Part shown: positions 1-62,491 of the stretch, piece after piece | How positions within the stretch are numbered: position 1 is the first letter of the stretch | Layout: every line of letters starts with the position of its first letter | From: Tricharina praecox | Lineage: Eukaryota | Assembly (NCBI RefSeq): GCF_024521635.1 | Contig: NW_026250405.1 | Coordinates: forward strand, 372,001-436,000 | DNA: 64,000 bases | Direction: 5' to 3' | Notes under the pieces: model-generated | The model's input: only the letters and a program-made list of their open reading frames with translations | Told to the model about the DNA's origin: nothing | The model's database searches: none | Made by a program: the position numbers and the translations under genes

Positions 1-475
1 GTATAAAGTTGGGGGGAGAGAGAACGACGTACCTTGACGATTGAGCTCGGGCTTAGGTGGAAGGAAGGAGGGTGGATGGGTGGGCGGGTGGGGGGAAAGG
101 AAGGAGGTAAGGAGGCTGGAAAGGAATGATCGATGGAGGGTGGGAAGGAAGGAAGAAAAGATGAATAGCCGAGGAGGAAAGGAAGCTGTGATGGTTGTAA
201 AGAGAAGGAGAGAAGGAGGATCAGATGGCGGGTGGTTTTATAGGTGGTTTGGGGCGGCTAGTTTACATTCAGTTTCGCCGCCGCCAGACGGCTAGACCCC
301 ACCAAAACTTGCTCGTCACTTGGAACGATCGAGAAAACGTGACGCAAATCGTTGGTGACGGGGTGGAAGTGTCGCCAGGCCGCTAGAACCGCACCAAAAC
401 ATGCTCATCAGATGGATCGAGCGAGAAAATTTGACCCGCTGATCGCTGGAGACGGGTTAATCACCTCGCGCGCCG
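1..475 (-). repeat. Promoter module P2 (TATA plus CT-rich tract on the - strand) of the dispersed H-module element; the copy continues off the left edge
   Basis: Colinear with 25850-26272 (e.g. gtataaagt-G-run-agaacgacgtaccttga; ggaagctgtgatggttgtaaagagaaggaga; ctagtttacattcagtttcgccg; cacctcgcg). TATAAAA on - at 236-242. Internal direct repeat ctagaccccaccaaaacttgctcgtca / ctagaaccgcaccaaaacatgctcatca at about 292 and 383. Confidence 0.85.
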
Positions 476-544
476 AACGTGTCACTGGTTCGGCTCTTCA
501 AAGTTCAAACCGCCCAGTGCCCACTGCAGGTGCTCGCCGCGCAC

Positions 545-750
545 AAAGGCAATGTCGTTCTCTCACACAGCGGCCAGAGCAACAACACTTGACCTATGGC
601 TATGAATACCTCACATGCATGGCCAAGAGGAAAGGCTTTTCAACTTTGAAAGAAAGAAGACCTCCGCGTACCTATAACATGGGGGTTTAGTAGGCCATGT
701 TATGCGCGTATAGCTTGGGCCGGTAATAGACCAAGTTATACTCCTTTGTT
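545..750 (+). repeat. Partial, diverged copy of the hairpin (H) module; candidate structured ncRNA
   Basis: Aligns to 25366-25565 (cagcggccagagcaacaa; tttcaactttgaaag; acctccgcgta; stems tataacatgg/ccatgttatg and tatagcttgg/ccaagttata). Confidence 0.8.
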
Positions 751-2229
751 TTTGTTGTTCTCGTCCGTAACGTGAACTGTAACTTTAGCTTAAGAGGGTT
801 CGCGAAGTCTCAGTCGTCGTCGCTCGCGAAGTGATGCGCGTTCACGGCGGCGTGCGAGTGGAAGTAGGTATGTAGGTGGAACGAAGACGTCATTTAGGTT
901 GCCGACTGTATGTGAAGGTACCATCATCCCATCACTAATGGTCTCCTATGTTGGAATACATGTTCTCGGCTTTTAAAACCACCTCTTCACATAAAATCAC
1001 CCGCCGATGTCGCGAGTGAGTTACTATGAATGCGTGCTTCGTATGGCTGTTTCTTCATATGTCACTCGACTGTGGCTGCCATCGTATCGTTCATTTATTC
1101 CATAGTGGTTTAAAGCTGTGGACTCGCCAAAAATCTTCTAGACACTGCACTCATTTGTGCGTACGCAGTCACGCGACTGTGAACATTTACTCCAAGTAGA
1201 TAAGTATCTGCATTTTCTGCGGTGTAGTTGCAACAGAAGCAAGTCAAGCCAACGAGATTCGACATTGCGTAAAACAGCAATTTCATATCTATCATGATTC
1301 CATGCCACTTCCCTCAGTATTTAAGACTCATCATACACTCCAAAGTTCCATATCCACTGGTCGCTCGCTACCACGAACTTCGTGGAGAACTATCAGATGG
1401 TAGGCATCCGAGTGCATGTTGGTGAATCATATCGATTGCCATTTGCGGCGCATCATTGGGGACCTACTGAACCTAGCTACGTATAAGGACGGACGTCCCA
1501 TGATTATAAGTGATAATAAGGAGCGATTGTGAACGGGACAAGGAAGAAGGGAATGCTACGCATAGTGGGGGGATCGAGTCCTTTGGTTATTGAGTCCAAA
1601 CAGTCGTTCCGAGGACTATTGTATTATATTCTCCGGTTAGACTTGAAGCAGTTCACTCGTTGAAAATCCGAAAAAATAGTTTCGAGAGGGAAGAATAAAG
1701 CTGCTTCGCTCGTGCGCGTCAGATCCGTCTTCATCCCCAACGTGGTCGCCGCGATATCTTGAACCGCGCGACTCTTCAGCGTACGGTACATGCCACTTAC
1801 GCACATAGTGGGGTCAACACACAATGAAATCAACCCCACATTAAACGCGACCAGAAAGCCGTCTACCTAGAATATGCGCGACACGGACGCTGAGCTGACG
1901 CTTCAGTCGCTGCGGAACTCCAGAGTTTTCGTTGCCGCATTTGCGGCCGCGTTATCCGGGATAAGTGCCCCACCTAGGAATCATACCAGAAAACGTACCT
2001 AAGTCATACCTACCCCACATTGGAGTTTCTACCCCACACGCGAATACATCATACATAGTCGAAAATTCCCCACCTCAGATATGTTCTCCTACTGCTTCAT
2101 AATTGAGAACTACTTTACGACTGGAATTGAACAGAAAAGACTTGTCGGTTTTGTGGCGATGTTTGAGAAATGACGCTACGACGCGACGCGACGCGACTCG
2201 GTTACCTTCACGGTTCGGCACTCGGATTG

Positions 2230-13479: not shown

Positions 13480-14219
13480 TGGCTAAGACGATTTACTTCC
13501 TACTTAATGGTGAAAAGGGATCTTTTTTTTTCTTTTAGAACGTTTTCGTATTTCTTTTGTTGATAACTGGAGTATTTGTGGTTTATGGGAAGGTGGATTG
13601 TATGTATGTAGATTCTGCGACCTCTTTACTCGGACTCCCAAGTCCCCAATAGTTGGAGCCGCGCCCTAGAAGTAATGTGATCGTGAATTGGCACCCGTAA
13701 GCGACCATTAGATTGGTACCTGCCTCTGACCGGTAGGCTTTCACCTGCGCGCTCGCACAGTTGCTACACCCTAGGTGCAAGTGACAGAATTGATACAGGT
13801 CGCGACCCTGAAGAATCCCGCCTGGGCCGAGGAGAATACTCGCAGCCGCTCATCGGCTGCATGGGTCTTCCATGCGGCAGGTACCCTCCGCTGCTCTTCC
13901 TCTGCTTGTTCTCTCCTTCTCTTCACATCAATTACAACTTTCCTTCCTTCCATCGATATTCCTGCTTGATTTACTTGACTAATCCGTTGTTTTCGGACTC
14001 AAAACCTATGCGGTGCGCAGAGGAACCCGGCGGCCTCGACCTCAACCACAACCATGAAGTATCTACGTCCTCCTCTCTCCCTACCAGCCTCCTTGGTTTT
14101 GTTTTTCTGTTTCTTATTTTGTTTTCTTGGGTTGCTTTCAACCTTCTCTCCCTCTACTACTTGTTTTTGTTTTTGTTTTTGTTTTTCTTAATTGTTTTCC
14201 ATTGCGTTCGTTTCATTTC

Positions 14220-14640
14220 ACTTCTAGGATAACCTTATAGAGACCTCCTACTCAGCCATAGTGAAGAGGAACCGTGATATCCTTGCGATACAATGGCTCT
14301 ATCCACCCTTGCCGGCCGAGCAGGGCGAACCATGAATTGAATTACGGGTTTCTCCTCTGCTGCCGGCAGAAGTTCTTTCCCCCATCCTCCGAGCTTCGGC
14401 CGTTTGGATGGATGTTCCCGAACCGGCCTCCACCTTAGGGTGGAGGACGTTCGGATGAGCTACCAAAAAATTAAAGAAGTTGACTGGGGCTACTCCTACG
14501 AGACCCCGGTTATACGTGGAGGTTTTCTTCCTTTGCTGTGATAGCAAAGGTCTTTCCTCCTGGTCATGTGCGTCATGACGCACATGACCGAAGTCAAATG
14601 TTGCTGTTCTGGCCGCGAGAGGATGATATTGGCTTGACCG
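14220..14640 (-). repeat. Highly diverged copy of the H module; candidate structured ncRNA
   Basis: Colinear with 15895-16380 on + (aggataacctta; gaggaac; tgctgccggca.aagttctttccccc; ttcggatgag; aaagaagt; gttatacg; ggaggtt.tcttccttt..aaaggtctt.cctcctgg; tctggccgc). Stems are retained with changed sequence. Confidence 0.8.
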
Positions 14641-14742
14641 ACTGCACTCTGTACTCTAGATCCACGGTTGATTCTTGCGTCGAGAGAATGAGTCAATTGG
14701 GGAGTTTAACGAGTGGTAGATTCGAGTCCACCATTGCGACGG

Positions 14743-14959
14743 CCGTATCTACTCGTCCATGAGACACAACCGCTAAAAAATTTGAATGAGCTTACCGAGT
14801 GTCAATGGGTGGCGCGAGTGTGCCGACAGAGCGCTGTATGGTGCTTTTCACATAGATCGTACTCAAATGGCGGCGAAAGTAGTTAGTGGACTTCCATTGC
14901 CACTCGGCAAGCTCATTCATGATTTGTAGCGGTTGTGTCTTATGAACGAGTGGATACGA
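14743..14959. mobile_element. MITE of about 217 bp, same TIR family as 60005-60458
   Basis: Imperfect TIRs of about 65 bp: ccgtatctactcgtccatgagacacaaccgcta...tgaatgagcttaccgagtgtcaatgg versus ccattgccactcggcaagctcattca...tagcggttgtgtcttatgaacgagtggatacg. No coding capacity. Confidence 0.75.
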
Positions 14960-15354
14960 TTCTTAGTGCCTGCTACCGCCTTTCTTAGTATAGGTACTCG
15001 GGCGATAGTTAATGTGTGCTTCTATCAGAAATTTGAACAACGAGTCAACACGAGGGGTATGTAGGGATTTATCATTTCCTTACGGCTGTAGTTGATTGCA
15101 AAAGTGAGTCGCGGTGATGTTTATATGCGTCCACGATGAGACTTCCCGGTAGAGGAACCCATGTTAGATCCTCGCGCAGGTGTTGAGTCGGACGGGATTG
15201 ACCCCAGTATCATCCTTTCTCGTCTCGGTGTGTCTCTTTAGGTTGGCTGCTGTTGCAGCATCAAACTGCACACGCCTGCGCGTGGGAGGGCTTCGTGTGG
15301 AGAGTAGCAAATGTGCTGGCCACCATATCAAGTTTGTCGCTATTCTGTTTCAGT

Positions 15355-15692
15355 GTTGTTTAATTGGTAGATAATGTTTTGCGCGTTTGTCGCTATTCCA
15401 CGCTGTGGGAACGTGTTCATAATCGCTCACTCGGAGCTGGAATGACTACGTGTGATGTAAAACATGTGTCGACACCTTGGAATGTAGCGGTGTTTGCTAA
15501 AAGGCAAACTTTTGAGTCGACGCTAGCGTGCTAGATGTGGTTGCTTGGAATCCACTCAACTTCCACCTATAAAATCCCCCTTTCCTCCCAACTCCTCCTC
15601 ACACTCTCCTTCCTATCTCCATTCATTAACTTCTTCTCCTTTCCCGCCCGGCACTAATGGCTACTTTATGCTACTGAACTACAATTAGTTTA
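15355..15692 (+). promoter_or_regulatory. Promoter module P1 (repeat; TATAAAA at 15568-15574 followed by a CT-rich tract)
   Basis: Colinear with 40278-40615 (gttttgcgcgtttgtcgctattcc; gtcgacaccttggaatgtagcggtgtttgct; gtggttgcttggaat; ccacctataaaa; tttcctcccaactc; tgctactga). Confidence 0.8.
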
Positions 15693-15827
15693 GTCAACCT
15701 CAACTTTTTCAACCACTCAGTGCGTCCTCTCTCTCTCCTCCACCTTGTCGCAGCTTAATACTTACTTGCCTTCTTTATTAGTCAACAGAGGTCCTCCGCC
15801 GAAGATTCCCCCTTCCTTTCTTCCACT

Positions 15828-16421
15828 GTAGCCCGCGCTCATACCTTGAGGTACGCCGTTCTCTCTCCCCCCCCCCCCCCCCCCCCACTTTATACTTCCA
15901 GGATAACCTTACAGAGCTATCCTGCTTAGCCGTCGCAGCGAGGAACTGAGGGTTCCGTGCAACTGGTTTACAAAGTGGACTATTGCGAGAGACGGATCCA
16001 ACCCTCGAGGCTGAGCAGAAAAGGTCTACGGACGGGGTTTTCTCTTGTGCTGCCGGCACAAGTTCTTTCCCCCTTCCTCCGGGAGTCCAAGTCGGTCAAG
16101 ACTCGACTTGCCGACTTGCTCCCGGTGGATGGCCTATCCGAAACCGGGTGACGAACGGTTTCGGATGAGATCCAAATAACCAAAGAAGTATAACTGGTCT
16201 ACTACCGCCCCAAGTTATACGCGTATAACGTGGTTTATTATCCCCCCACGTTATACGCGGAGGTTGTCTTCCTTTCAAAGTTGAAAGGTCTTACCTCCTG
16301 GCCATGCATGAGTGGGATGCATGCGCCATTGGCCAAGTATTGTTGCTCTGGCCGCTGCGCGAGACAACGATATTTGCCCCGCTTGTGGATTACGCCGTAA
16401 AATCCATTGCGGCGAGTGATT
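15828..16421 (-). repeat. H module, full copy (near-identical inverted copy of 25325-25900); candidate structured ncRNA
   Basis: Reverse complement of 25346-25860 with about 3 substitutions seen by eye plus a G/C-run length difference; at least 8 consecutive stem-loops. Confidence 0.9.
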
Positions 16422-17477
16422 ACCCGTGAATAGAAGTCACTTTCTCTTCCCCTCCATCCTTGCATCACCGGCTGACATGTTTCACCAAGCACAGGTCAGG
16501 CCGATCTCCCGTCTACCTTCCATGTCGTGTAAAGTCTCCGACCAATACGCTCCCAGATAGGCATCGAATACGAGCTGCAAGAACCGCACCAAGGATGCAG
16601 TCTCTCAAACCACGATCATCACCACCGCAAACCCGCACACACGCACGTAGCTCTTCGCCATGCCTCCGAAGTTACTCACGGTTTTCCTCTTCGCTTTCCG
16701 CCTATACGCCGAAGATACAATTATCGCCATCCCGGCGGTCTACATCGGTACCTGGAGTTTTCACTACCGTGGAACTCTCTACGGCCGCACGCTCAGACAC
16801 CGTCGTTGCAGAACGATGAGAGAGCGTTCAGTGGAAGCAGGCAGCGGAGGATGACGTATCTGTGAGTGGAAGAGATATGCGAGAGCAAGCGAATGCGGTT
16901 ACTAGTAGGCAGCACCAGCGGTGGGGGTCCGGCGGAGTCGTATGCTCTCTTAGCCGTCTGCTTCTACTTCTGCTTTTCTCCTCCTTCTTCTTCTTCTTTT
17001 CATCATCATCATCCGATAAGACGATCATCCCTCACATCTTTTCGTTCCTCTGTGTGTGCTTTCCTCTAGATCCCGTCTCCCGCCTGGAGGAGTATTGACC
17101 AACGAACCGCTCGCAAAACCGTGACATATACGCTATCGATCTCCTATCTCATCATTCCTTACCACTCTCATATCGTACACCGGTCGCGCTCCTTCGGAAT
17201 CCTGAATTTTTATCCTGCACCGAACACGAAGCCACAAGACATCACGTGACGGCTCCATCCACTCGCAAGAGGTGATACTGCGCAAAGGTGAAGAGGATAT
17301 GGGCATGCTCCCCGCTCTGGGATGCATGGCATGGCAGTGGCAAGGAGTGCGTGGCGGAGGAGGAGGAGTGTGGGGCCATTGGGATTGATATCAGCGTGGA
17401 TATCGTATGTACTGGTCAGTCACCGGAAGAGGTGGGGATCATTTCCCCTCATCCACCGCGGACCTGCGGTGGCAACA

Positions 17478-18026
17478 TGATACTTGATACATCTCCCGCC
17501 GTCCCCGCCACTCGGCCAACGCCCCACACCCGCACGTACGAAGCAACGTTTTGCCGGCTCCTCACAGATGACCAAGACGGAACTCGAATGCCTGCAGGCC
17601 TACAATACGGTACATTCACGAACGACTACCTGGCGGAGATTAGGCGATTCGGCCGTCCGAGGGCGTGGTACGAAACATCCAACGCGGGAGTGACCATTCA
17701 TGAATTTCCTTCGCTGCTTCTCCGCTTCTGTCCCTGTAGCGGCATTATGTACGTACGTTTCTACTCTCGGCCGAGAACGAGCAGAGCTAACTGTCCCAAA
17801 GCAATCGAAGCTGAGCTCCTGTCTGACTATCGTGTCGTGTAACATCGCCAACCAATCTGCTGACGTCGGCATCGCCACACAGCTGTTCATCGAATACGAG
17901 CTGCAGAAAACTCACAATTATAACCGCACCACAATCGACACCCCACATAAGCACCCTATGTCTCGCTACGACGCCCGCTCCGCCTTTTATGCCTCCAACC
18001 TCGCTTTCCCAGGCCTTTCAGCCTGA
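17478..18026 (+). CDS. Hypothetical protein, 2 exons (start uncertain)
   Basis: ORF 17288-17842 joins ORF 17700-18026 in phase 0 through intron gtacgt(about 17753)...gctaac...aag(17801). Confidence 0.4.
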
Positions 18027-24703: not shown

Positions 24704-25140
24704 GCCGCCTCCAGAATAGTCACCAGGGTAAACAGAAAAGTAGGAACATTTGTCTACATAAGTATTCGAAATTGTTGCAGAATGTTGCAGTTTCCAGACG
24801 GACCAATACCTTTTAACAGCGACTTATGTTAAAACAAGTATACATGTAGGGATATGGAGTACCTACCGTACCTGCCTATATAGGCTGCGGAAACTGGCTA
24901 CATGGCCCATCTCCCTGTGAACGGAGTCACGCGCGGCCTTGGCGAATAGTTAATCCTGCCATACACGCACGCACCAGTAAAAACATAGGAACATTCGTCT
25001 ACATACTTGTTTTAACATAAGTAGTTGTTAAAAGGTATTGGTCCGTCTGAAAACTGCAACATTGTGCAACAATTTCGAATACTTATGTAGACAAATGTTC
25101 CTATTTTTCTGTTTACCCTGGTGACTATGCTGGGGGCGGC
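24704..25140. mobile_element. Foldback/MITE element with TIRs of about 135 bp
   Basis: 24704-24840 (gccgcctccagaatagtcaccagggtaaacagaaaagtaggaacatttgtctacataagtattcgaaattgttgca...ttatgttaaaacaagta) is the near-perfect inverse of 25004-25140. A partial internal copy of the TIR lies at about 24976-25005. Confidence 0.85.
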
Positions 25141-25324
25141 GCTTCTCAAAGAGTCGACACTGCCGTCCAGTGCCGCCCTATGCCGCCCAGTGCCCAGCGC
25201 CCAGGCCGGAGATCTACCTCTCCGTACATAACTAGCCGTCAGAGACCTCGACGATGTCCTCCCCTGTGCCTGTGCATCTGCAGAGGCAAGTCAGAGCGGA
25301 GAGTCGAAAACATCTTCACAGATG

Positions 25325-25900
25325 ATCACTCACGACATTGGATCGTACGGCGTAATCCACAAGCGGGGCAAATATCGTTGTCTCGCGCAGCGGCCAGAGC
25401 AACAATACTTGGCCAATGGCGCATGCATCCCACTCATGCATGGCCAGGAGGTAAGACCTTTCAACTTTGAAAGGAAGACAACCTCCGCGTATAACGTGGG
25501 GGGATAATAAACCACGTTATACGCGTATAACTTGGGGCGGTAGTAGACCAGTTATACTTCTTTGGTTATTTGGATCTCATCCGAAACCGTTCGTCACCCG
25601 GTTTCGGATAGGCCATCCACAGGGAGCAAGTCGGCAAGTCGAGTCTTGACCGACTTGGACTCCCGGAGGAAGGGGGAAAGAACTTGTGCCGGCAGCACAA
25701 GAGAAAACCCCGTCCGTAGATCTTTTCTGCTCAGCCTCGAGGGTTGGATCCGTCTCTCGCAATAGTCCACTTTGTAAACCAGTTGCACGGAACCCTCAGT
25801 TCCTCGCTGCTACGGCTAAGCAGGATAGCTCTGTAAGGTTATCCTGGAAGTATAAAGTGGGGGGGGGAGAACGACGTACCTTGAGGATTGAGCTCGAACT
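25325..25900 (+). ncRNA. H module, reference copy: candidate highly structured non-coding RNA / non-autonomous element
   Basis: Back-to-back stems at 25373-84/25397-407, 25447-52/25481-86 (inner cctttcaa/ttgaaagg), 25488-99/25512-23, 25525-35/25548-57, 25579-89/25599-609, 25622-34/25650-64, 25683-89/25695-701 and 25822-29/25838-45. Covariation in the other copies; no conserved long ORF. The repeat is certain, the RNA function is inferred. Confidence 0.55.
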
Positions 25901-26272
25901 TAGGTGAATGGAAGGTGGATGGGTGGAAAAGAAGGAGGGATGGAGGGTGGAAAGGAAGGAAGGGTGAATAGCCGATGAGGAAAGGAAGCTGTGATGGTTG
26001 TAAAGAGAAGGAGAGGAGGAGGAGCAGAGGGGGGGTGGTTTTATAAGTGTTGTGGGGTGGCTAGTTTACATTCAGTTTCGCCGTCGCCAGACCGCTAGAC
26101 CCCACCAAACTTGCTCGTCACTTAGAACCAGCGAGCACACATGACGCCAATCGTCGGAGCTAGGTGGAAGTGCCGCTAGAACCTACTAAAACGTTCTCGT
26201 CAGATTCAACGAGCGAGCAAACGATACGAGCTACATCCTCGCCGGAGATGGCTCGAAGTCACCTCGCGTGCC
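25850..26272 (-). promoter_or_regulatory. Promoter module P2 (TATAAAA on - at 26039-26045 plus CT-rich tract) facing the H module
   Basis: Colinear with 1-475; duplicated cgctaga.c..ac.aaa..tt/gctcgtca motif at about 26093 and 26174. Confidence 0.75.
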
Positions 26273-27337
26273 GGCGGCTAAACTGGTTACGGATCATGGC
26301 CAAATATGTTCAACACACCTTTTTGGAAAAAAGCGCTGACTAAAAGAGTGAGAAAGGAAAGAGGAAAAGAGAGGAAAAGAGGGAGAACAAGATGAGAAAA
26401 ACAGAGAGCGGAAGAGAGGCTATTGGTTCAATGACTTGTACCATGGCAGTCGCGGTGGATACTCTTTGATAATCCACACGACATAGTCCAAGCTTCCCCA
26501 TGTAATAATCTCTACTATCAGTCCGGAGCCACCCTCCACGGGATTGTATCATGGTTACCCTGAAACATGTGGTGAAAGCACCGGATATCACTCGCCATCT
26601 TTTCGCGAATTGACTCCGTCATTCCTGTTCGGTGACTAGTCATTCCGTCAATGACTCCAACTGTGTAGGTTGATTGCCTTTTGAAATAGGTCCCTAATGA
26701 TAACCAATATAATAGTTAAGGCAAACTTCATCTACCTATACCTATATGTATTTCCATGTGTATAAGGTATATGTTGCCAGCTCGCTGAGTGTAACAGTAT
26801 GATTTCGTTTCCATACTCCCCAACACTCATCAGAGTTCAATCGCTATCGTAGGTACCTACAACTTTAACTGGATGTTTGTTCACTATAGTACATGAACAG
26901 CTTACGCCTCTTCGCAAGAGACGATCCTTTCAGGCGCCATGGAGGAAGGCCGGCAGGCATGATGGTGGTTCTTAGCTGTAGAGCTAAGAGGCGCGAACGA
27001 AAAAGTGGGTTTGATGGTGGAGATAGCACTGTATTACCGGCTAAGGCTTAGTTTCCCTGAAATGTAAACCCCTAACCCATCACCATCTCCACCAAACCCC
27101 TCTCCTCGCTGTCACCTACGTATCCTCTCGCAATTTTCGTTCTCGTTTTGGCTCTCTTTTTCTCTCTTCTTTGTCTTGTTTGGCGGTCTGTTGTGGTGTG
27201 GCGCGACTAGCCTTTCGACCGCCGTACCAGGCAACTTTATTGATATTCCGGGCCGGACAAATTCGGTCCCGTTTGGAGCATAGCCTAGGACGGACGGGAC
27301 GATTCCCAGGCCTGTCGTCCAGTGCGTAATGCCAGTT

Positions 27338-32597: not shown

Positions 32598-35500
32598 TCA
32601 TCGGTAGCCATGCCACGAGAGCCTGCCAAGAAGTGCTTCCACGAAGTTCACTGAGTCATAGAACCCCCTATCCCAAAGGAAGAGTCGGTCTACTCCTAAG
32701 ATCACCGCCAAATAGTGCGGACAGCTCAACAACTCCAGGATCCCCTTCCTCTCAAGCAACTGACCACGGCCCGAAAAGGGAACAGGGCATTCCGGCTCTT
32801 CGAAGCGCATCCTGAGGAGACGACGACACTCATCAAAGTCCAGACGAGCCTGGGTGGGGGCACCACAGGCAAGAGGCTGAGAAGGGGGCAGAACTTTCTG
32901 GCGCTCGCGATCGATACCAGGGTTGGTGTCGGAATTGTATCTACCATTGATCGTCTTCACGAACGCCCTGTAATCAATTGCGTTCAAGTACTCCTTAGAC
33001 GGCTCTTGAGTAGGAAACATTTGACGCCCGTGTTTTGGAGGCGACAGCGAGACCACAACAATCTGCGCGATGTTACCGAAGCGCAAAACCGAGGTGTGAC
33101 GAAGTCCAGCACCGTCGGACAGCACAGGGGGCGTCGGGGGAGGCGGCCGAATCGGAAGGTTCGCATTACCGGAAATCCAAGTTGGCAGCATACGCCCTCC
33201 CGGTAACACGCCAGATGATGCCGGACCAGAAAACCACCCCTCTCTTGTGTGGAGTGCTGGGTTTGCCGTCGACAGCGATGAATAGTCAAATTGACCTGGC
33301 GGGGGCTCCCACTCCATAGCCGGCGGAAACTCCTCCCTAGGCGCAAAGGTGACCAATTGATACGGCGACGGCACGGGCACCAGAGTTTGCTGCGCAACAG
33401 TGGGCCTCATAGGACCAGGCATCTGTTGCTCAGCAACAGAGGGCCGTGAAGGACCAGGCTGTTCTTCCGCCACCACCGAGTTCTGCGATGGACCCGGATG
33501 TTGTTGCGCCACAACAGGAGGCGTCCAAGGACCAGGCATCTGTAGCTCAGTAATAGAGGGCCGTGAAGGACCAGGCTGTTGTTCCGCCACCACCGAGTTC
33601 TGCGATGGACCCGGATGTTGTTGCGCCACAACAGGAGGCGTCCACGGACCAGGCATCTGTTGCTCAGCAACAGAGGGCAGCGAAGGACCGGGCTGCTGCT
33701 GCGCCACCAGCGAGGGCTGCGACGGGCAAGGCATCTGCTTCTGGGCAAAAGAACGACTATAGGGAGGAGGCATCGGTGGTAGGGTAACAGAGGGCCGCGA
33801 AGGACCAGGCTGGAGCTGCGCCACCGCCGAGGGCTGCGAATGACTAGGTTGGAGCTGCGCCACCGCCGAGGGCTGCGAATGACTAGGTTGGAGCTGCGCT
33901 AACGCCGAGGGCTGCGAAGGGCCAGACTGGAGCTGTACCACCGCCGAGGGTTGCGATGGACCAGCAATCTGCTGCTGGGTAACAGGACGCTTATACGCAG
34001 GAGGCATCAGTGGTAGAGTAACAGAGGGCTGTGAAGGGCCAGGCTGCAGCTGTGCCACCACCGAGGGTTGCGAAGGACCAGGCTGCAGCTGCGCCACCAC
34101 CGAAGGCTGCGAAGGACCAGAAATCTGCTTTTGGGCAACAGGACGCCTATAAGCAGAGGGAATCCGTGGCAGCGTAACAGAGGGCCGCGAAGTACCAGGT
34201 AGCTGTTGTTGCAAGGGCCTGTAAGCCCGCACTGGTTGCCCCTGGGAAGTCCGCCAGTTTCCATCTACCTTCAAATTCCTGAGGATGGGATACCCGGCGA
34301 CTTTCGTGGGTCGTGCAGCCCCCACGATCTGCATAAGCTCTCCGAGCTCATCGTAAATCTTCTCGTAGGCGGCTGTTTTACCAGCGTCGTCCATGGTCAT
34401 TGCAATGCGATTGACATAGTACTTATGTCTAAAATAACTGAACTTCACGATCTGGTCTTCGAAGTCCTGGGGTCCCCTGCCTCGTTTCAGAACCTTGTTC
34501 ACCCAGTCCATGGTTTCCGTCGCAAGCCAAATGCTCCCACACGGCGTGTATTTAGACGGGTACAAAGCAGTCCCTAGGGGCTTTGTGCGATAGATTACGA
34601 AGACATTTTTGTCTTCCGCCTCCATCCCCGATTCACGCTGCTGAAGAACGGTATCTAGTTGCTGCTCGTCTCCCGTCTTCCGCACGAACGCCTTCTTCGA
34701 GGTCGGTCCATCCTCTGGCTCAGCCGAAGCTCGTCGCTTGGTTAACTCGCCCCCATGCCGTACCGGAACAGAAACCTCCTCCGACGGGATCATCGAGTCC
34801 GTTAAAGTTAACCTCTTCCGCCTCTCAATTTCCTCTCGTGTCTTCCTCAGAAGATCGGTCATGCCGAAAGGCGTTCTCGAAACCTCCTCTGACTCCTCCC
34901 TCTCCCTCTTATTCCCTTGCAGTTCAGCACCACCCTGTCCACTCGCATTGGTGAGGCCTGTGAGAGCAGACCCATAGCCTCCGTCACCACCATACTTTGA
35001 TGGGCTAGCTTGCTGGTACTCGAGTGATAATCCCCCAACGGACGACGGCTCGCCCAGACCGTTCCCTCCCGCGCCAGTCTCACCACCGTGGAAGCCAAGC
35101 TGCATGCAAGTTCCATCATCGCCGGATGTCTTGCTTGCTCCGTTGAAACCAGCGCTGATCCCAGTCTGAGGTAGGACGCTCTCACCAGCCCCAGCAGCAG
35201 AAGACACCGTCCCAAGTGGAGCAGCATACTGCAGACCCACCTCCTCTGCCGCCGCGTACCCCATGGAATAGTCAGTGGGAGTGCGAGCAATTTCTTCAAC
35301 ATTCTCCGAGCTTGCGCCCAGGTGCACACCGTCCACCCCCGGAAAGGACCACTGGGAAGCGTCATATGGTATCCCACTCTCGCCTACCGCAGTGCTAGAC
35401 ACCCTAGGGAGAGGTGCTAGTTGATCGGGCATAGCATGAAGCTTTCCTGAGAGAGAGCCATGCGTCCCATTCACACCATTGGTACTGTTGTAGACCGGAT

Positions 35501-35811
35501 TCCAATGATACCGGCTCGAAATCTCGTCTTGCTGAGCCTTCGCGAACGTTAGTGATGAGGGGCGAATTCCTCTCGTTAGAAATCGGAGTCACTTACCCAG
35601 TCATCTTCACGTTCCTGGCTTTTCGGAACGGCCGCTTCCACGAACTCATTAATTTCTTGCTCGGTCTACGAGTATGTGGTAAGCACAATCTCATCCAGGG
35701 GGGGTTAAAATGCAGGATACTCACACATGGGATACGATCGGGCTTACTCCAAGGAAAGTTCTGAGCCTCTCGGCCAGGACTTCTCGGGGATCCTTGTGAT
35801 TGTGGAAACAT
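32598..35811 (-). CDS. Large orphan protein (>1000 aa) with a Gln/Pro-rich tandem-repeat region
   Basis: 958-aa ORF extended in frame by two upstream exons (MFPQSQG...RIPC | TEQEINEF...DDW | AQQDEIS...) with gtgagt and gtaagt donors. About 20 PGPS(Q/R)PSVVAQ(L/Q)Q-type repeats at about 33400-34200. Confidence 0.75.
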
Positions 35812-38545: not shown

Positions 38546-39717
38546 ATGCAGGTATTTCACAAACCGCTACCACCGAAAGCTGAAGCGATGGAGGCTTCCT
38601 TGAATCAGATGCAGGCTCTCTTGAGTCAGATGCAGGCGGCCAGTCAGGCCGACCCACAGGGGCTCTCTAACCCATCCCGCGTGGATGTCACCGTCACTCC
38701 GGGTCAATACGTCGCAACCTTCAATCTCGAAATGATCACCGGCATCCGCAGTCTGATAGAGTTCATCAGTCTGGCGTGGGCACCGGGCATTCTCCGGCCC
38801 TTTTGTTGGATTCATACTCTAGAGAAAAACGTACCGCTACCCCCATACCCCACTTATGCGCATATAGCCGACTAACTTGAATAAAGGAACATATCCGCGG
38901 CACCAGGTGGCTCAAAGATACACTCACAAACTTCAATTACAAGGACAACTCAATCCGAGATCAGGTCAACGTCATTGAAGACATCTATGACATTGAAGAC
39001 ACCGATGACATTGAGGACACCGAAAACGAGGAACCCTTAGTCAGGCTGTACCAGCTCCAGGCTGTACCAGCTCCAGGCTGTACCAGCTCCAGGCTGTACC
39101 AGCTCCAGGCTGTACCAGCTCCAGGCTGTACCAGCTCCAGGCTGTACCAGCTCCAGGCTGATGCGTTCACACTCACTGAACAAATCGCCAGAAGCAAGAT
39201 TAGTCAGGAGCTGGTACAGCTTCAACAGCATGGCCTCCCTCTCAATACGGTCCTAGCATATGTTGGCAATGATGCCACCGACAAGGTGCTTTCCAACTAC
39301 GGATTTCCAAAGCAAGCAGATGATGCCGAGAACGCCGCTCTTTCTTCTAACGGTGCAGGTGTCGGATCTGACGGGGATTACCACTCGGCTGGTAGTGGAA
39401 TTCGTGAAGACAACCAGGAGGAGGAGGAAGACGACAACGAGGAGGAGGAGGAAGAAGACGACCAGAAAGAAGAGGAAGGCACGGTTCCAAACAGCTGCCC
39501 GGTCCCCGGCTGTTTCAGAAATGGCATGTCTTACACCGAGCATACGAGTTTACAGAGGCATATTCTCACTCACCATGCCGATCTCACGGATCCAAAGATC
39601 AAGAAGGCCTGTCGTATGGAGTGGAGCATGCACGTTTCTGGAAATCCGCGTGGACAGGAGATCGAGAAGCTGTTTGGCCCGTGGCCTGGGCAGGCGCCGC
39701 CACCTCCGAAGCAGTAA
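38546..39717 (+). CDS. Orphan protein with an acidic tract and a C-terminal C2H2-type zinc finger (5' end may extend upstream)
   Basis: Exon 38546-38830, intron gtaccg..actaac..aag at 38831-38886, exon 38887-39717 open through the 16-bp repeat. Contains CPVPGC..(x12)..LQRHILTHH. Confidence 0.7.
39042..39160 (+). repeat. Perfect 16-bp tandem repeat (caggctgtaccagctc) x7.4 inside a CDS
   Basis: Seven identical units at 39042-39153 plus caggctg. Confidence 0.97.
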
Positions 39718-40277
39718 GGCTGGGTAAGGTAACTCACCAGTACTAGTGTATCAATCTTGAATCTTGTCTCGCTCCAGTCGCTTCCAATTGTGGTGTTCTG
39801 GTTTTAGTCACTGGTGCCTCGCTAAAAACATTGCACCACTTTTTTGATCCGAAGTGTACTTATCTCCTCAACCCCCACCCCAACCTCGAGCAGCGTGATA
39901 GACTGGGACGCAGTGAGAGCCAGAGCGCAGGAAAAGGTACGGGCTGGACGGCCGGAGATACCGGCATATGAGGGAAGAAATGAGGCGTTAGACTAGATCA
40001 TTCTGGATGCAGGAATTGAGTGGGGAAGCGAGCTTTGATGTGGGGTTTTGAGAAAGCCTGACGCTTTTCCTTTTCATTTTGTCATCTTATTTGTATTCTT
40101 TCTTTCTGTCTTTCTTTCAATGTGCGGATGGGCGGGCGGAGAGCAATAGGGAACCCACATCGAGCTCGCGGCCAGCGGTCGGAGACGGTGGGGTGGAAGT
40201 GGACGTGTGTACAGCCATGATCTGATAGGGTCGAATGCTATGATGATGACAAAACAAAAACCTTAGAATGTTTGGTT

Positions 40278-40615
40278 TTGTTTAATCAGTAGATAATTGT
40301 TTTGCGCGTTTGTCGCTATTCCTCGCTGTGGGAATGTGTTCATTGGTGCTCACTGGTATGTCGAGTGACCTTGTTTGATGTCACACATCTGTCGACACCT
40401 TGGAATGTAGCGGTGTTTGCTGCCAAACAAACTTTGGAGTCGCGGCTAGTGCGCTAGAAGTGGTTGCTTGGAATTTCACCAAATCCACCTATAAAACCCT
40501 CCTTTCCTCCCAACTCTTCCTCCCATTCTCCTTCCTCTCCCCACTCATTGAATTCTTCTGCTTCCTTCCCGTCTGGCACTAATTAGTGATTCATGCTACT
40601 GAGTTAGATTAGTTT
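40278..40615 (+). promoter_or_regulatory. Promoter module P1, second copy (TATAAAA at 40490-40496)
   Basis: Colinear with 15355-15692. Confidence 0.8.
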
Positions 40616-44838: not shown

Positions 44839-45729
44839 TTACTGTGGCGTTGGGCTGACTGAGGATGCGGGACAGGCACAGACCCAGTGGCGGGCTGGTT
44901 GGGTGTACTCTACAGTAAGCAGTGTGTCCGGAGTTCCGGGGACCGATCTACGACCAGAATTAGTAAAGGTACCCGGTATGACATCGCCTCGGAAATCGAC
45001 GCCAGATATCTACCATAGAACAATTCCAAAAGCTTACTGACTGGTGCCAACTTCATCATTCGCTTCCCCATCGTTACCATCGGATCTTCCGATTAAGCGA
45101 TTCCTGAGTTTTCTAGGGTCGTCTGGAGGAAAACAGGCGTCAGCAGAACATTCAATTCCCTCATATTCTCATCCATGATCCTCCTCCTCTCTATGGCAAG
45201 ATCCCTGTCCGACAGAGCTGGTGCATGGGCTGAGTACCGTGCAGCTACCGAAGGCTTAAGAGCGGGAGAGGTCTTGACCCTCTTAGCTGCCTGAGCCTAA
45301 CCCCCGGGGGCCTTCGGCAAAGAATGCTGACGAGTAGGAGATGCTGGAGAAGCTACGAGCACATGGATGCCACTGCGCAGCAGCACATGTCCGAGTGATC
45401 GTCGATGCAGCTCGTACGCTTGGCCGTGCATCTCTGGGATGAAGTACCCCCGATGATCCTCGATGATCTTGGGGGCCTCGGGGGAGGCAGTAGTAGTAAT
45501 TGTAGCAGTGGTAGTGGCGGTAACTGCGGTTGTGATTGCGCGGGATACGGCGTCGGTTCCGGGCAGAGAACATCCATTTATTTTCGCATGCGGCCTGTCT
45601 GGACTACGGCGACCAAATTCTTGCCGAAAAATAGGGTACTCACAGACTATTATCGGCCTGGGCGAGTGATATGGAGAGTATGAGCAGAAACAAAGAGGGA
45701 AGACGACGAGTGATCTTATCTTTGGTCAT
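44839..45729 (-). CDS. Putative small secreted Thr-rich orphan protein (exon model uncertain)
   Basis: MTKDKITRRLPSLFLLILSISLAQA signal-peptide-like exon; gtgagt intron at 45643-45595 in phase with LPHAKINGC..TTAVTATTTATITTT. Probable further introns at 45301-45123 and about 45037-44948. Confidence 0.5.
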
Positions 45730-46882
45730 AATTGCTTGCGACCTCCCTATCTAGATGATGGGAGTATACACACACCGCTTCATCGATCACCATCCAGATC
45801 CGACCGAGAGGCTTTTTCCTCACAAGATCTCCTCTACCGGCGAGGTTCTTGCCCTCCGAGTGATTCCGGGTGATTGAGACCAGGAAAGCGTTAAGATGTA
45901 ACTTCCGATGAGGAAACACCTACGGGACTTGCTGTAGTTAACTTGCTCGCTCTCGCATAAATAATTTCAGGGGCAACTCAAGAGGTGAGAAGGCAAAGGT
46001 CTATTCTCTTAGTCACGTGTGAGAGACATGGTAGTCCGCAGTCACTGTTGTTGCTCCTACTATCGCTGCGCGAGAGAATGAGATTAAATTTCCAGCTCCC
46101 TGGAAGGAGAACGATGCCCGGAGCCTGCTGTTTTTCGTATTGCGAGAGTTTTTTATATGCATTCGTGGAATGAAAGGAATGCATGTTGACCGTGTTATGG
46201 AATCCCAGTAAACCAATCGGATACCTTTCCCGGCGCTATCTAATATCACCACAGCGATAAGGATCATGACGGCCGTCCAATCGGTGGGAGAAGTCAGTGA
46301 GTCCTATGTATCCTCAGGAAGTACGCAGCTTTTCTGTGTGGGTATGTAACCCCCGGGGCCCACGAGCTAGTGCCTAGGTTGGAACCATACCATAGACGCT
46401 ATAGCCGCAGTTTCTTCTCGTAGACCATCTGTCGGGTGAAGGAACTGTACTCACTTCCGCATGTGGAGATGCACCGAGGAAACGCACTTCGACAGGGCGC
46501 ACTAGGTAGTGGTCACGCCTGATTCGCCCCCTCAGTAGTTAGTAATTCGAGTATATAGTCGGGAACTAGCAGGCGCGAGCCCTGCTCATGGTTCGGGGTG
46601 TGATGTTTGATGTTTGGCGCGGTCTGTCGGCTGTGCAAAAGCTGTCGATGTTGATTGCACATAGTTTACGATCTGCTCGGCACCTTCCAGGCAGGCTGCA
46701 TACGTATCTGCGGTCGCCCACATGATATCAAACTGAGGGGAACCCGTGGCCGGTCAACAAAGACGGCAGCTCTATTCACCATCGGTCCGATGTTTTGTGT
46801 TTGCTCTCTATAAATATTCCCACTTCCCGCTCCTCCATCAGGCCACCGTTCTTCCCGCTTTCTCTCCACAAACCACCCAACA

Positions 46883-59662: not shown

Positions 59663-60004
59663 GAGATACGGACGGAGGTGCTTACCTATTGTACATACGT
59701 CTTTTTGCGGGAGTTGTGGATTAACTGATATTGTTTTTTGCTTTGCACGTTTGTGCGGAAACTATGATGTAACCGTTTACTCGTCCATCTATACCTAACT
59801 CAATAAGAGATGGGCACGCACGGCCCGGAATATACTGGCTCCAAGGTCTATTGTGCCCGGGGCTGCTTTCGGAGAGTCTTCGCAGGATTAAGATTCCTTC
59901 ATCACCAAGCCGGATACCGGTACCCTTTGTATCGTGAGTTTCCATGAAGCTTGCTTCTCACGGCGGCGGCAACGGTAACGGCAGCAACCCATCCTTCTCA
60001 CGTA

Positions 60005-60458
60005 CCGTATCTACTCGATCATTGTAACCGGCGCGCTAAGAGGTCAGAATAAACTTACCGAGTAGCAATGAAAAGGGTGCAAAGTGGCAATATCAGTTTG
60101 CCACTGCCAGAGCTCTCGCTCAAAACTCTCTCTTAGTATCTACAGATGTCGAGCGGGAAAAATGAATTGATACAGGTGGGAAGGGATGGGCGATTCCATA
60201 GTGTAATACTACACGTCTCCAGAGTTTAGCAGGCCCAGAAACAGCAGTTTTGTTGTTTCCGAGTGGATGCACAAAGCATCACCCGTGCCAAGACCGTGGC
60301 CAAAGTTCCTGATTTCTAACAAAACAGCTGCTTTTTCAGCACTGAAGTTGCGAAAACATTTGCCACAAAGACCCTTCCGTCCACCGAATTTTCATTGCCA
60401 CTCGGCAAGTTTATTCTGACCTCTTAGCGCGCCGGTTACAATGATCGAGTAGATACAG
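60005..60458. mobile_element. MITE of 454 bp with TA target-site duplication (Tc1/mariner-pogo type)
   Basis: TA|ccgtatctactcgatcattgtaaccggcgcgctaagaggtcagaataaactt.ccgagt.gcaatgaaa ... inverse copy at about 60390-60458|TA. TIRs of about 68 bp; no transposase. Confidence 0.88.
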
Positions 60459-62491
60459 TATCAACGAAGTGCTAATATACCCATACACCTCACTATATCA
60501 TCTCTCGGCAGCAAGTATCACCGCCGATGGGCAAACGGCACTGGTACACTCCATCCCATCCCACCCCAATAGCAACCACTCGGCATGGTACGCTGAGCTG
60601 AACAAAGTATGTACAATTCCGAGATCCCGAGCCTATGTACCAACCTGCGCAAGGGGCCTGTGATGATCATTGATTAGGCTTTTAGATCTGGTCTGTTCGC
60701 GTGCGCCCTCCCAACCAGCCCTCCCGCGGCTTCACACCACTCGTCGCACACACCTGTTACATACCTCGGTCCACTCGCCAGAGTAGAGTACATCTGGTCA
60801 CAGCTCGTGAGTCTTCACTGCCTATTCTAGTTGACACTTATCTTATGGCTATAATATAGGTAACTTCGAACTCTCCCTCGAGCCCGCACTCCCACTTCAT
60901 CTCTACTACCCCTCTCTCGCAGACCGCAGAGTCCTCCAGGCTCCAACTGTTCAGCTTCGAACGGTCGAACTTACAACCTCATGTATAATACGGTATATAC
61001 ACATGAGGTTGTGCACGTCTTCGGCGCTGTATCCCTCGTTACCGCAGCGGCACTTGGATACAACGAGCCAACAACGAGCCACGAATGGACCACCGACGAA
61101 CCACCAACAAGCCGAAGGGAAAGAACCATCGAGCGTGATTTGGGTACCTTCCCAGCTAGCCAGGCCGCTTTCTGTTCCTTTTCTTTTCTTTTCTTTGCAA
61201 AGTTAGGTATATCAGTTCTGTGGGAGCGGGGGGAACCGAGTAACAAGTGTGATGCAGCCGTCGGAGCGAGAAGTCGACCACGCCTGTGTGCACATGGACC
61301 GAAGACAATGCGTGTGAAATACATCTACGGACCTACGGTACACACGATGCGATACCTACGTCGTCTCGCAGGCTTTACATGCGCGGAATCTGCCCCACCA
61401 TGTCTGGTCCCTGGTCCTTAATCCTTCCAGTAGTTCGTGGGGCACAGCTCGTCGTGCTCTGCTGGGGACTGCGCAGAAGAGCCAGGTCGTAATAACTCTC
61501 ACGTGTCCACAGCGGAACCCCAGGCTACAGCATGTATCGAGTAGCAGAGGGGTGCGGCGATTATGGTGGCGGCCGTGACTCGTGACTCGTGAGTGCCCAC
61601 ACATACAGAGAATATCGCAGTCGCCGTACCCTACTATCCTACTATAGCAGGTGCGACATACCATGATATCACTGATCACTGATCAACAGTGCTGCTGCTA
61701 CTACTACTTCTGATAGTTTCCGGATCCCGCATCTCGTGGTAGCCAGAGATACCTAGCTCTAAAAAGTCAAGTGCGAGCACAGATGTATCATATATCACTC
61801 GAGCAATTCCAAAGTACATACCTGAACGCTACACATCTTCCCCAGTATAGTAGACATCTTCACAGAAACGCTGGATTCTCTGGAAGAAACGACGTGCCTT
61901 AGGTACCTTGCCTCGTCCCCAGTAGTTCGAGTGAAGAACTGTCCAGACGGATAATGAATGTGATTTACGGAGGATTATCTACCTATCAGGCACCCCCACC
62001 CCCACAACCAATCTAGACCTGATAAACCACCTGGCGCTTCGGCGGCCCTCCACGGCCCATTAAGAGTACGGTTATCACTACGCCGTGCACCCGCAGCGAT
62101 AAGCGCCAATCGAAGCTCAAGCTCGAGCTCAAGCCCCAGGTATACTACCGCACCTAGTCAGGTACATGGGGCAAACATCGTGCAGACACCTCAGCTTCTC
62201 AGGCGGATTCATTCATTCAACATCCAATCTATATTTCCGACTTCAAGCATGTAGGTCTAGGTAGACTATCTAGAAACATCTCAAGATCGCAAGCCATTAC
62301 AAGCCCATTAAACCCTCCCTACGATCCTGTTCCAAGTTCCAACCTCAAAGAATTTATCATCGCATAAAACCGAATAAAAAACCAAACCAACATCGAACGA
62401 ACGAACGAGAGTAACGAAGGTATAAGGATATAACGCCCCCAAGCGCCCATGTTTCGACGACAACGACGACAGCCACGACACTTTCTTCTAT

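Follow-up and report, generated by a model that had tools for sequence, protein, structure and literature searches.

Dispersed intergenic hairpin repeats are familiar from bacteria, where the REP, BIME and REPIN elements form mosaics with short modules and their arms co-vary between copies. The SINE-like retroposons (SINE, short interspersed nuclear element) are likewise non-coding and multi-copy, and possess a structured RNA body. Arms of palindromes can also be shaped by mutation. As described for RNA genes, template switching creates perfect stems, fixes the pairing of existing stems and gives multi-base compensatory changes (PMC8794818), and in a report on yeast promoters it homogenises and expands the inverted repeats near them (PMC13100816). 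Here we analyzed 64,000 nt of nuclear DNA of the filamentous fungus Tricharina praecox (assembly GCF_024521635.1, contig NW_026250405.1, positions 372,001 to 436,000; G+C about 52%), referred to as the window. It holds five copies of a non-coding repeat of about 0.5 kb, here called H, in both orientations and in differing gene contexts (Table 1), one of which, c46k, was newly found in this analysis. In H at least 12 local hairpins, each of 7-17 bp, are strung together. A sequence-only reading of the window had proposed that the diverged copy c14k preserves its stems by compensatory change relative to c25k, and that H is a functional single-stranded nucleic acid. The strand used there (+ at c25k, - at c14k) is called the reader's strand below. 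We favour another explanation, to which we give a probability of roughly 50%: H is a DNA repeat module, present in multiple copies and rich in palindromes, in which template switching makes, extends and corrects the arms.

All the stem and linker strings quoted in the sequence-only reading are present in the copies. Between c25k and c14k, cttgtgc/gcacaag (25683/25695) corresponds to cttctgc/gcagagg (14372/14360), and cctttcaa/ttgaaagg (25457/25467) to cctttgct/agcaaagg (14550/14537), while c14k also contains the perfect arms ggtcatgtgcgtca/tgacgcacatgacc (14589/14575) and the arms cctccacc/ggtggagg (14446/14434). In c0.5k, acgtgg/ccacgt (25494/25512) has become acatgg/ccatgt (677/695) as had been noted, but the separate change of tat/ata to tgt/aca also claimed for this copy was not found. 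The strings gggggaaagaac, ggaaga and gcggccaga recur between copies, and for them the proposed conservation of unpaired linkers holds. It does not extend to linkers in general, whose identity at aligned sites is 75%, compared with 80% for stems and 81% for loops.

The stems of c14k changed largely in blocks. Hairpin h2 of this copy is a perfect palindrome of 14+14 nt (28 nt) with 0 nt between the arms; by eye, its right arm resembles the loop and right arm of c0.5k while the left arm is new, as though rewritten with its partner as the template. What looks like an extension of h7 consists of 13 nt inserted with respect to c25k and carries GGTGGAGG, which is the exact reverse complement of CCTCCACC (8 nt) located 4 nt upstream; CCTCCACC itself aligns to the old loop of h7. 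These eight new bases match their neighbour while the copy differs by about 20% elsewhere, and therefore they are templated and not independent point changes. In both h2 and h7 the new block is an exact reverse complement of adjacent sequence, the mark of a template switch, and at least two of the changes are templated in nature. At h4 a block was replaced, with three adjacent pairs and the loop differing as one unit between c14k and c25k. The left arm of h4 in c14k is common to c46k, the c14k version resembles the paralogous h9 module, and this version may be the older state. Moreover, c14k is without the h8 apex and without one of the tandem h5/h6 hairpins. The creation of perfect arms, the correction of one arm to the other, the extension of arms and the central deletion all belong to the known behaviour of quasi-palindromes under template switching. 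Palindrome correction of this kind had been named in the sequence-only reading as an outcome that would refute it, and its pattern is seen in two of the four examples given there (the 28-nt palindrome and the 13-nt insertion). Repeat-induced point mutation was also considered as a general source of the symmetric transitions and was rejected: transitions and transversions are similar in frequency (21/20, 32/44 and 34/44 between copies), and several of the double changes are transversions.

We then compared the stability of the hairpins with neutral expectation. The fold z of c14k against dinucleotide shuffles is -5.0 on the reader's strand and -4.8 on the other (for c25k see Table 1). In a neutral simulation, the hairpin segments of c25k were given the observed number of random substitutions, with 1000 runs per segment. 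Simulated segments at least as stable as those of c14k appeared 0 times for h2, 2 for h3-4, 0 for h7 and 18 for h9. As a result, the hairpins of c14k are kept or renewed well beyond chance in four of the five tested segments, and their folding potential exceeds that left by neutral point substitution, which supports the sequence-only reading to this extent. For the fifth segment, h8, all 1000 simulations were at least as stable, because its apex is deleted in c14k. The same simulation places c0.5k near neutral decay at h2 and h3-4 (200 and 681 of 1000 at least as stable) and shows mild retention at h5 and h6 (61 and 15). Hairpins of c46k are mostly lost, with an energy sum of -25 kcal/mol over about 300 nt, and hairpins h0 and h1 are present only in c25k and c16k.

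The evidence for compensatory change depends on how the copies are aligned. When the structure of c25k was projected onto c14k through a sequence-only pairwise alignment, in which some arms are misplaced, 59 pairs were unchanged, 67 fell in gaps, 22 were broken by a one-sided change (8 to A.C and 14 other) and 4 became G.U. Five pairs were changed on both sides (2 Watson-Crick, 2 G.U and 1 unpaired). Slid controls, with the 3' partner shifted by 1-2 columns, gave 1-3 Watson-Crick doubles, so there is no excess, and stepwise compensation is not how the stems were mainly kept. For the five copies aligned plainly with MAFFT, the RNAalifold consensus was -18.4 kcal/mol and its covariation term +4.83. 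This consensus is weak because the apices are misaligned, and we therefore used alignments fitted to covariance models (CMs). c25k and c16k, given the local-hairpin structure, supplied the models, to which Infernal aligned the other copies.

Model R1 (h2-h6, reader's strand) scored 85.2 bits for c0.5k and 30.5 bits for c14k, with 93.9% of the cells paired (shuffles 85.1 +/- 1.9) and 13 double-changed pairs, compared with 4.4 +/- 1.7 in shuffles (0/500 as high) and 0-2 in slid controls. Model R2 (h7-h9, reader's strand) gave 32.6 bits for c14k, with 97.0% of the cells paired (shuffles 94.0 +/- 1.2) and 3 double-changed pairs, compared with 0.9 +/- 0.8 (17/500 as high) and 0 in slid controls. 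Neither model matched c46k at E up to 10. The CM-fitted alignments are biased toward the structure of the model and represent only three distinct lineages, and 5 of the 13 double-changed pairs of R1 lie in a helix where the alignment of c14k is doubtful, since the pairing is unused by that copy's own fold. Robust double changes comprise one basal and three apical pairs of h2, two or three pairs of h4, and a single pair in each of h5, h9 and the 3' hairpin; by eye, single flips in h7 and h9 of c46k were also counted as robust. The independent lineages of H number only 3 to 4, and no count is strong on that basis. The proposal that stems are kept by compensatory change hence stands in the structure-fitted alignments and fails in the sequence-only one, where the 2 Watson-Crick doubles lie within the range of the slid controls.

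The signal is symmetric between the two strands. R3, a mirror model on the reverse complement of the R1 region, scored 88.6 bits for c0.5k and 35.5 bits for c14k, slightly above R1, with 92.5% of the cells paired and 11 double-changed pairs, compared with 3.8 +/- 1.6 in shuffles (0/500 as high). Summed hairpin energies on the two strands are -182/-178, -120.5/-117.4, -47/-44 and -25/-29.5 kcal/mol, and whole-copy folds are equal between strands. In the sequence-only projection, A.C (8) exceeds G.U (4) among the one-sided changes on the reader's strand. The strand specificity expected of a functional RNA was found neither in the scores of R1 and R3 nor in the energies, the double changes or the ratio of A.C to G.U. 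Because the signal is equal on both strands, it is a property of the duplex, that is, of a palindrome, and not of one strand. A functional single-stranded nucleic acid, as concluded in the sequence-only reading, does not follow from covariation, energies and scores that are alike on the complementary strand.

These results suggest the following mechanism. Templated mutation in DNA, namely intrastrand or inter-arm template switching in replication or repair (quasi-palindrome correction), would create the hairpin arms, lengthen them and restore their match, and apices would additionally be lost through deletion. Copying of one arm from the other would keep or increase the fold-back potential on both strands and produce multi-base differences that look compensatory, so that selection on an RNA fold would not be needed. 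Copies that escape correction would decay, as c0.5k has done in part and c46k for the most part, and H tracts would be homogenised between copies by gene conversion. We infer that templated mutation, not selection, is the main keeper of the hairpins, and H probably has no host function.

Table 1. Repeat H, its hairpins and the adjoining module F in the window
Feature	Position	Strand	Basis or remark
c14k, flagged diverged copy, all of H	14215-14643	-	nhmmer against c25k, E 1.1e-31
c25k, reference copy of H, chain of at least 12 local hairpins	25315-25867	+	fold z -7.9 (+), -9.1 (-)
c16k, near-identical inverted partner of c25k	15878-16430	-	inverted repeat of 553 nt at 98%
c0.5k, first ~220 nt of H only, cut within h7	548-772	+	blastn 80% to 25371-25587
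c46k, strongly decayed, first ~300 nt of H	45800-46097	-	nhmmer profile, E 1.8e-08
c14k hairpin h2	14562-14589	-	hairpin list
c14k hairpins h3/h4	14518-14560	-	hairpin list
c14k hairpin h7	14418-14454	-	hairpin list
c14k hairpin h9	~14354-14372	-	hairpin list
h3/h4 and h9 modules, c25k	25447-25486 and 25668-25715		shared layout
h3/h4 and h9 modules, c14k	14518-14560 and 14340-14392		shared layout
Module F next to H	25850-26320	+	77% identical to 1-429
Second copy of F, at window start	1-515	+	~85% identical to the 25.8-kb F (390 identical, 68 substituted)
F remnant, short, adjoining c16k	15796-15872	-	sequence comparison

The copies of H are nested. They extend from about 220 nt in c0.5k and about 300 nt in c46k to all of H in c14k and to H plus a second module, F, in c25k and c16k, with a common end near 25368-25373 and an opposite end that differs. 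With c14k as the query, c46k was matched by nhmmer at E 3e-05. Among these copies, c16k and c25k differ at 12 positions, 9 of them within 25320-25345 and only 3 in the other 522 nt. They are thus 99.4% identical over 522 nt, inverted around 8.9 kb with at least two genes, while their flanks are only 65-80% identical. The flanks are homologous on both sides, and the two copies are therefore not independent insertions. Because near-identity of H lies within far more diverged flanks, the H tract of this pair is best read as the product of recent gene conversion. The inverted arrangement around 8.9 kb of genes could itself drive inversion or gene conversion. An insertion resembling a MITE (miniature inverted-repeat transposable element) is located directly upstream of c25k (24704-25140; 437 bp, terminal inverted repeats of 138 nt at 95%) and is missing from the corresponding place beside c16k.

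Within H, the h3/h4 and h9 modules (about 40 nt) can be aligned with each other and have the layout GGAGG-AAAGA-hairpin-GAAGAAAACC, which accordingly occurs twice. In half-to-half alignments of H, c14k reached z 3.8, level with the best of 300 shuffles, and c25k was not significant. This likeness, with modest support, hints at an old internal duplication of H.

H is usually joined to module F. The F copy at the window start is preceded by the last bases of an H copy (1-9) and followed by c0.5k, and short F remnants adjoin c14k as well as c16k. At 25850-26320, F is purine-rich on the + (reader's) strand. The opposite strand, read by eye, contains two 58-nt repeats, a TATA-like CCACTTATAAAACC motif, a CT-rich stretch and AAG|GTACGT, and these promoter-like features are all directed into H. 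At c16k a different repeated TATA/CT-rich block (15353-15691) stands in place of most of F; it matches 40275-40615 at 81% identity, shows a TATA-like motif followed by a CT-rich stretch and is again directed into H. Several metagenome contigs cover this block, which is therefore multi-copy too. A run of G (C on the other strand) marks the H/F junction, with about 9 at 25859-25867, about 21 at 15866-15886 and 6 at 11-16.

We further compared a 4-kb stretch of the window (13500-17500) with the contigs of four public sequencing runs, of which X1 and X2 are soil-metagenome DNA, X3 is a small run of one organism and X4 is of a kind only guessed as RNA; none of the runs listed for this stretch is registered as RNA. 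Contigs matching this stretch numbered 210 in X1, 183 in X2 and 11 in X3. Place 15927 within H is overlapped by at least 15 distinct contigs of X1 and at least 9 of X2, and every one of them has a letter differing from the window there. Of the X3 pieces listed, 8/8 lie on H or on the block 15353-15691, exact matches and variants together. Many distinct contigs with variants indicate that H is a multi-copy family instead of a duplication confined to one place; summed contig depth does not amount to a copy number. Loose ends of metagenome contigs revealed two consensus versions, with 2-3 contigs each, of a spacer-less palindrome replacing the h8 apex; what separates the two versions is transitions at a CpG that match between the arms. 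One metagenome contig joins 16370 back to 15921 (back 450), with a weak shorter joint side of 31 letters, and in some locus H units may follow one another head to tail with no F between them. In a metagenome collection one locus was matched by a degenerate 22-nt pattern taken from where H starts, a chance match in a bacterial coding region, and a 22-nt h9 pattern gave 0 matches each in the prokaryote-genome and viral contig collections. No nuclear fungal repeat of this kind was found described in the literature searched, within which the H family appears to be undescribed.

Several observations weigh against the template-switching explanation. Hairpins h2, h4, h7 and h9 of c14k are renewed at positions homologous to hairpins of c25k and are more stable than those of c25k; pure mutation would have to strike the same small element repeatedly, and selection for a folded single strand would be the simpler account. 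The decay of c46k indicates that the palindromes are not self-maintaining. Moreover, the second pair of h9 is U-A in c25k, U.G in c14k and C-G in c46k (reader's strand; by eye), which is a classical wobble path. The G-C to C-G change in h9 and the C-G to G-C change in h7 of c46k are single-pair transversion doubles, and these flips look like ordinary compensation. Both promoter-like blocks, F and 15353-15691, are directed into H, as would be consistent with transcription of the strand opposite to the reader's. Run X4 includes a 212-nt contig identical to 15977-16188 inside H; on H this run has just that exact contig and a 161-nt variant contig, most of 13768-15911 is uncovered, and its contigs cannot show strand, ends or level, so no conclusion on expression was drawn. 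Taken in total, a role of H as RNA or single-stranded DNA seems to us doubtful. One form of it is the body of a non-autonomous mobile element whose single-stranded intermediate has to fold in order to be copied, this intermediate being either RNA of the complementary strand transcribed from the F-side promoter, or single-stranded DNA. Its many copies in varied contexts and orientations, the nesting with one shared end and the two different TATA/CT-rich blocks pointing into H on the complementary strand would suit such an element, and nested copies combined with complementary-strand RNA would give the pattern of 5'-truncated retroposed copies. Selection would then act on the propagating master copies, inserted copies would drift, and the seemingly compensatory differences would be those between subfamilies, consistent with hairpins retained in c14k, decayed in c46k and partly decayed in c0.5k, and with the slightly higher CM scores of the opposite strand. 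This selection on master copies, like the mobile element it presupposes, we regard as unlikely. Target-site duplications were found at no copy, with no flanking direct repeat of at least 6 nt at c0.5k and c46k and only chance-size ones elsewhere. The best end-to-end match of the H+F unit as terminal inverted repeats is 14 nt at 86%, and an A-rich or simple-repeat tail is absent at the shared end of the H copies. ARAGORN found 0 tRNA or tmRNA genes, and neither it nor Rfam revealed a SINE head derived from tRNA, 7SL or 5S RNA in H. No reverse-transcriptase or transposase domain was present in the 42/87 open reading frames (ORFs) of at least 130 aa that were scanned. In addition, c16k and c25k are not independent insertions, and a retro-copy would leave behind a TATA box that lies about 250 nt within the unit. 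A 7-nt CAAATAT at both ends of H+F was rejected as a target-site duplication, for it is inside sequence that is homologous in another copy and is not flank. The arrangement LTR-H-LTR, with F as the long terminal repeat (LTR), was rejected because upstream of c25k, with the MITE removed, only 14-nt and 10-nt words are common with F. Helitrons have a 5' TC, a 3' CTRR, a subterminal hairpin and insertion between A and T; the shared end of H is TC in all four lineages (by eye), while similarity runs on upstream, the preceding base is A, G, A or C, and the other end is undefined.

Alternatively, in the sense of the sequence-only reading, H could be a host non-coding RNA family or a cis-acting RNA element on the reader's strand, with purifying selection on the stems and with purine motifs that bind protein. 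The stability of c14k hairpins above the expectation from random substitution, the structure-fitted covariation in excess of shuffles and slid controls, and the repeated purine-hairpin module within H would agree with it, as would the wobble pairs that c0.5k (h2, h5 and h6) and c14k (h9) have on the reader's strand. The same is true of c46k, which in this orientation is flanked by a TATA-like motif on one side and a gene's ATG on the other. Signals and scores equal or better on the opposite strand, A.C more frequent than G.U, linkers conserved no better than stems, h0 and h1 confined to c25k and c16k and an orientation to neighbouring genes that varies among copies all argue the other way; loop-less perfect palindromes and inverted-copy insertions are signatures of DNA. 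No Rfam family was matched either: at gathering score the whole window gave 0 matches, and at E up to 5 the region 13800-16600 gave three sub-threshold unrelated families at chance level (bits/cutoff 23/84, 17.8/42 and 16/60). A host RNA is for these reasons the least probable explanation considered. H plus F might instead be a repeated cis-regulatory DNA module, whose palindromes serve as sites of dimeric proteins or as cruciforms. H adjoins several gene starts, and intergenic copies near them would be expected under this view: c16k ends about 100 nt ahead of a 2418-nt contig of run X4 starting at 16535, and c46k lies upstream of an ATG near 45727 (- strand) in a gene that opens with a signal-peptide-like exon. 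TATA-like motifs and CT-rich stretches in F and in 15353-15691 would agree as well, and inverted-repeat expansion is described among the yeast promoters of one report (PMC13100816). A protein reading half-sites, however, needs no joint change of two arms, the hairpin sequences all differ and share no common binding motif, and c14k is located past the 3' end of a gene, not ahead of one; we judge this module improbable, only slightly less so than a host RNA. A further view would make H the folded body of an undescribed class of fungal elements, either a non-autonomous retroelement driven by RNA polymerase II or a long non-coding RNA family with modules of purine motif and hairpin, transcribed from the F promoter, with its stems selected and with template switching only as the source of mutation. 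Such a class has, in our estimate, a small chance of being correct, and the DNA palindrome module reshaped by template switching remains the explanation we prefer.

Besides H, the window holds genes and several other repeats. Encoded among them are a fungal-rhodopsin-domain protein, a tyrosinase, a PA/M28 aminopeptidase, PrpF and Gtr1/RagA, and by eye intron starts of the GTACGT type are found in window genes. An ORF of 996 codons (32601-35588, -) gave no Pfam match and holds an array of 39-nt (13-codon) repeats at 33391-34276. A perfect 16-nt tandem repeat of about 9 units occupies 39026-39176. Between c14k and c16k there is a small inverted-repeat element at 14744-14958, with arms of 65 nt at 86% and 85 nt between them, of which variant contigs are present in runs X1, X2 and X4. 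Another MITE-like inverted repeat is located at 60003-60460, with arms of 72 nt at 96% and 314 nt between them.

If the template-switching explanation is true, H would be a clear case from nature, in a filamentous fungus, of RNA-style covariation being mimicked by templated mutation, and of a palindrome chain that remains foldable, and even gains stems, during sequence turnover. Finding RNAs by covariation in repeat families would then call for caution: both strands should be tested and block changes removed first. If one of the single-stranded explanations is true instead, fungi would have in H a new family of structured RNAs or of mobile elements, and for a mobile element the nested copies would mean that the transcribed strand is the complement of the reader's.

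Compared with known systems, H resembles REP, BIME and REPIN in being a dispersed hairpin repeat that forms a mosaic with another module and has co-varying arms. It is not a member of them: it is eukaryotic and about 10 times longer, with many different hairpins and no associated transposase seen. With the SINE-like retroposons it has in common a non-coding, multi-copy nature, nested copies with one shared end and a folded body, but a tRNA-like or known RNA head, a tail and target-site duplications are lacking, and 0.5-0.9 kb is long for a SINE. MITEs, exemplified in the window by 24704-25140, are also non-coding, multi-copy and near genes. H has neither the long terminal inverted repeats nor the target-site duplications that define them, and its complementarity is local, hairpin by hairpin. 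From the template-switch quasi-palindromes of the cases set out by Monttinen and Loytynoja (2022, PMC8794818) and Rozenfeld et al. (2026, PMC13100816), which are single RNA-gene stems or promoter sites, H differs in chaining at least 12 hairpins into a 0.5-kb multi-copy unit joined to a second module. What it shares with those cases are perfect arms, arms made as inverted copies, changes of several bases in one event, strand symmetry and a position near promoters in a fungus.

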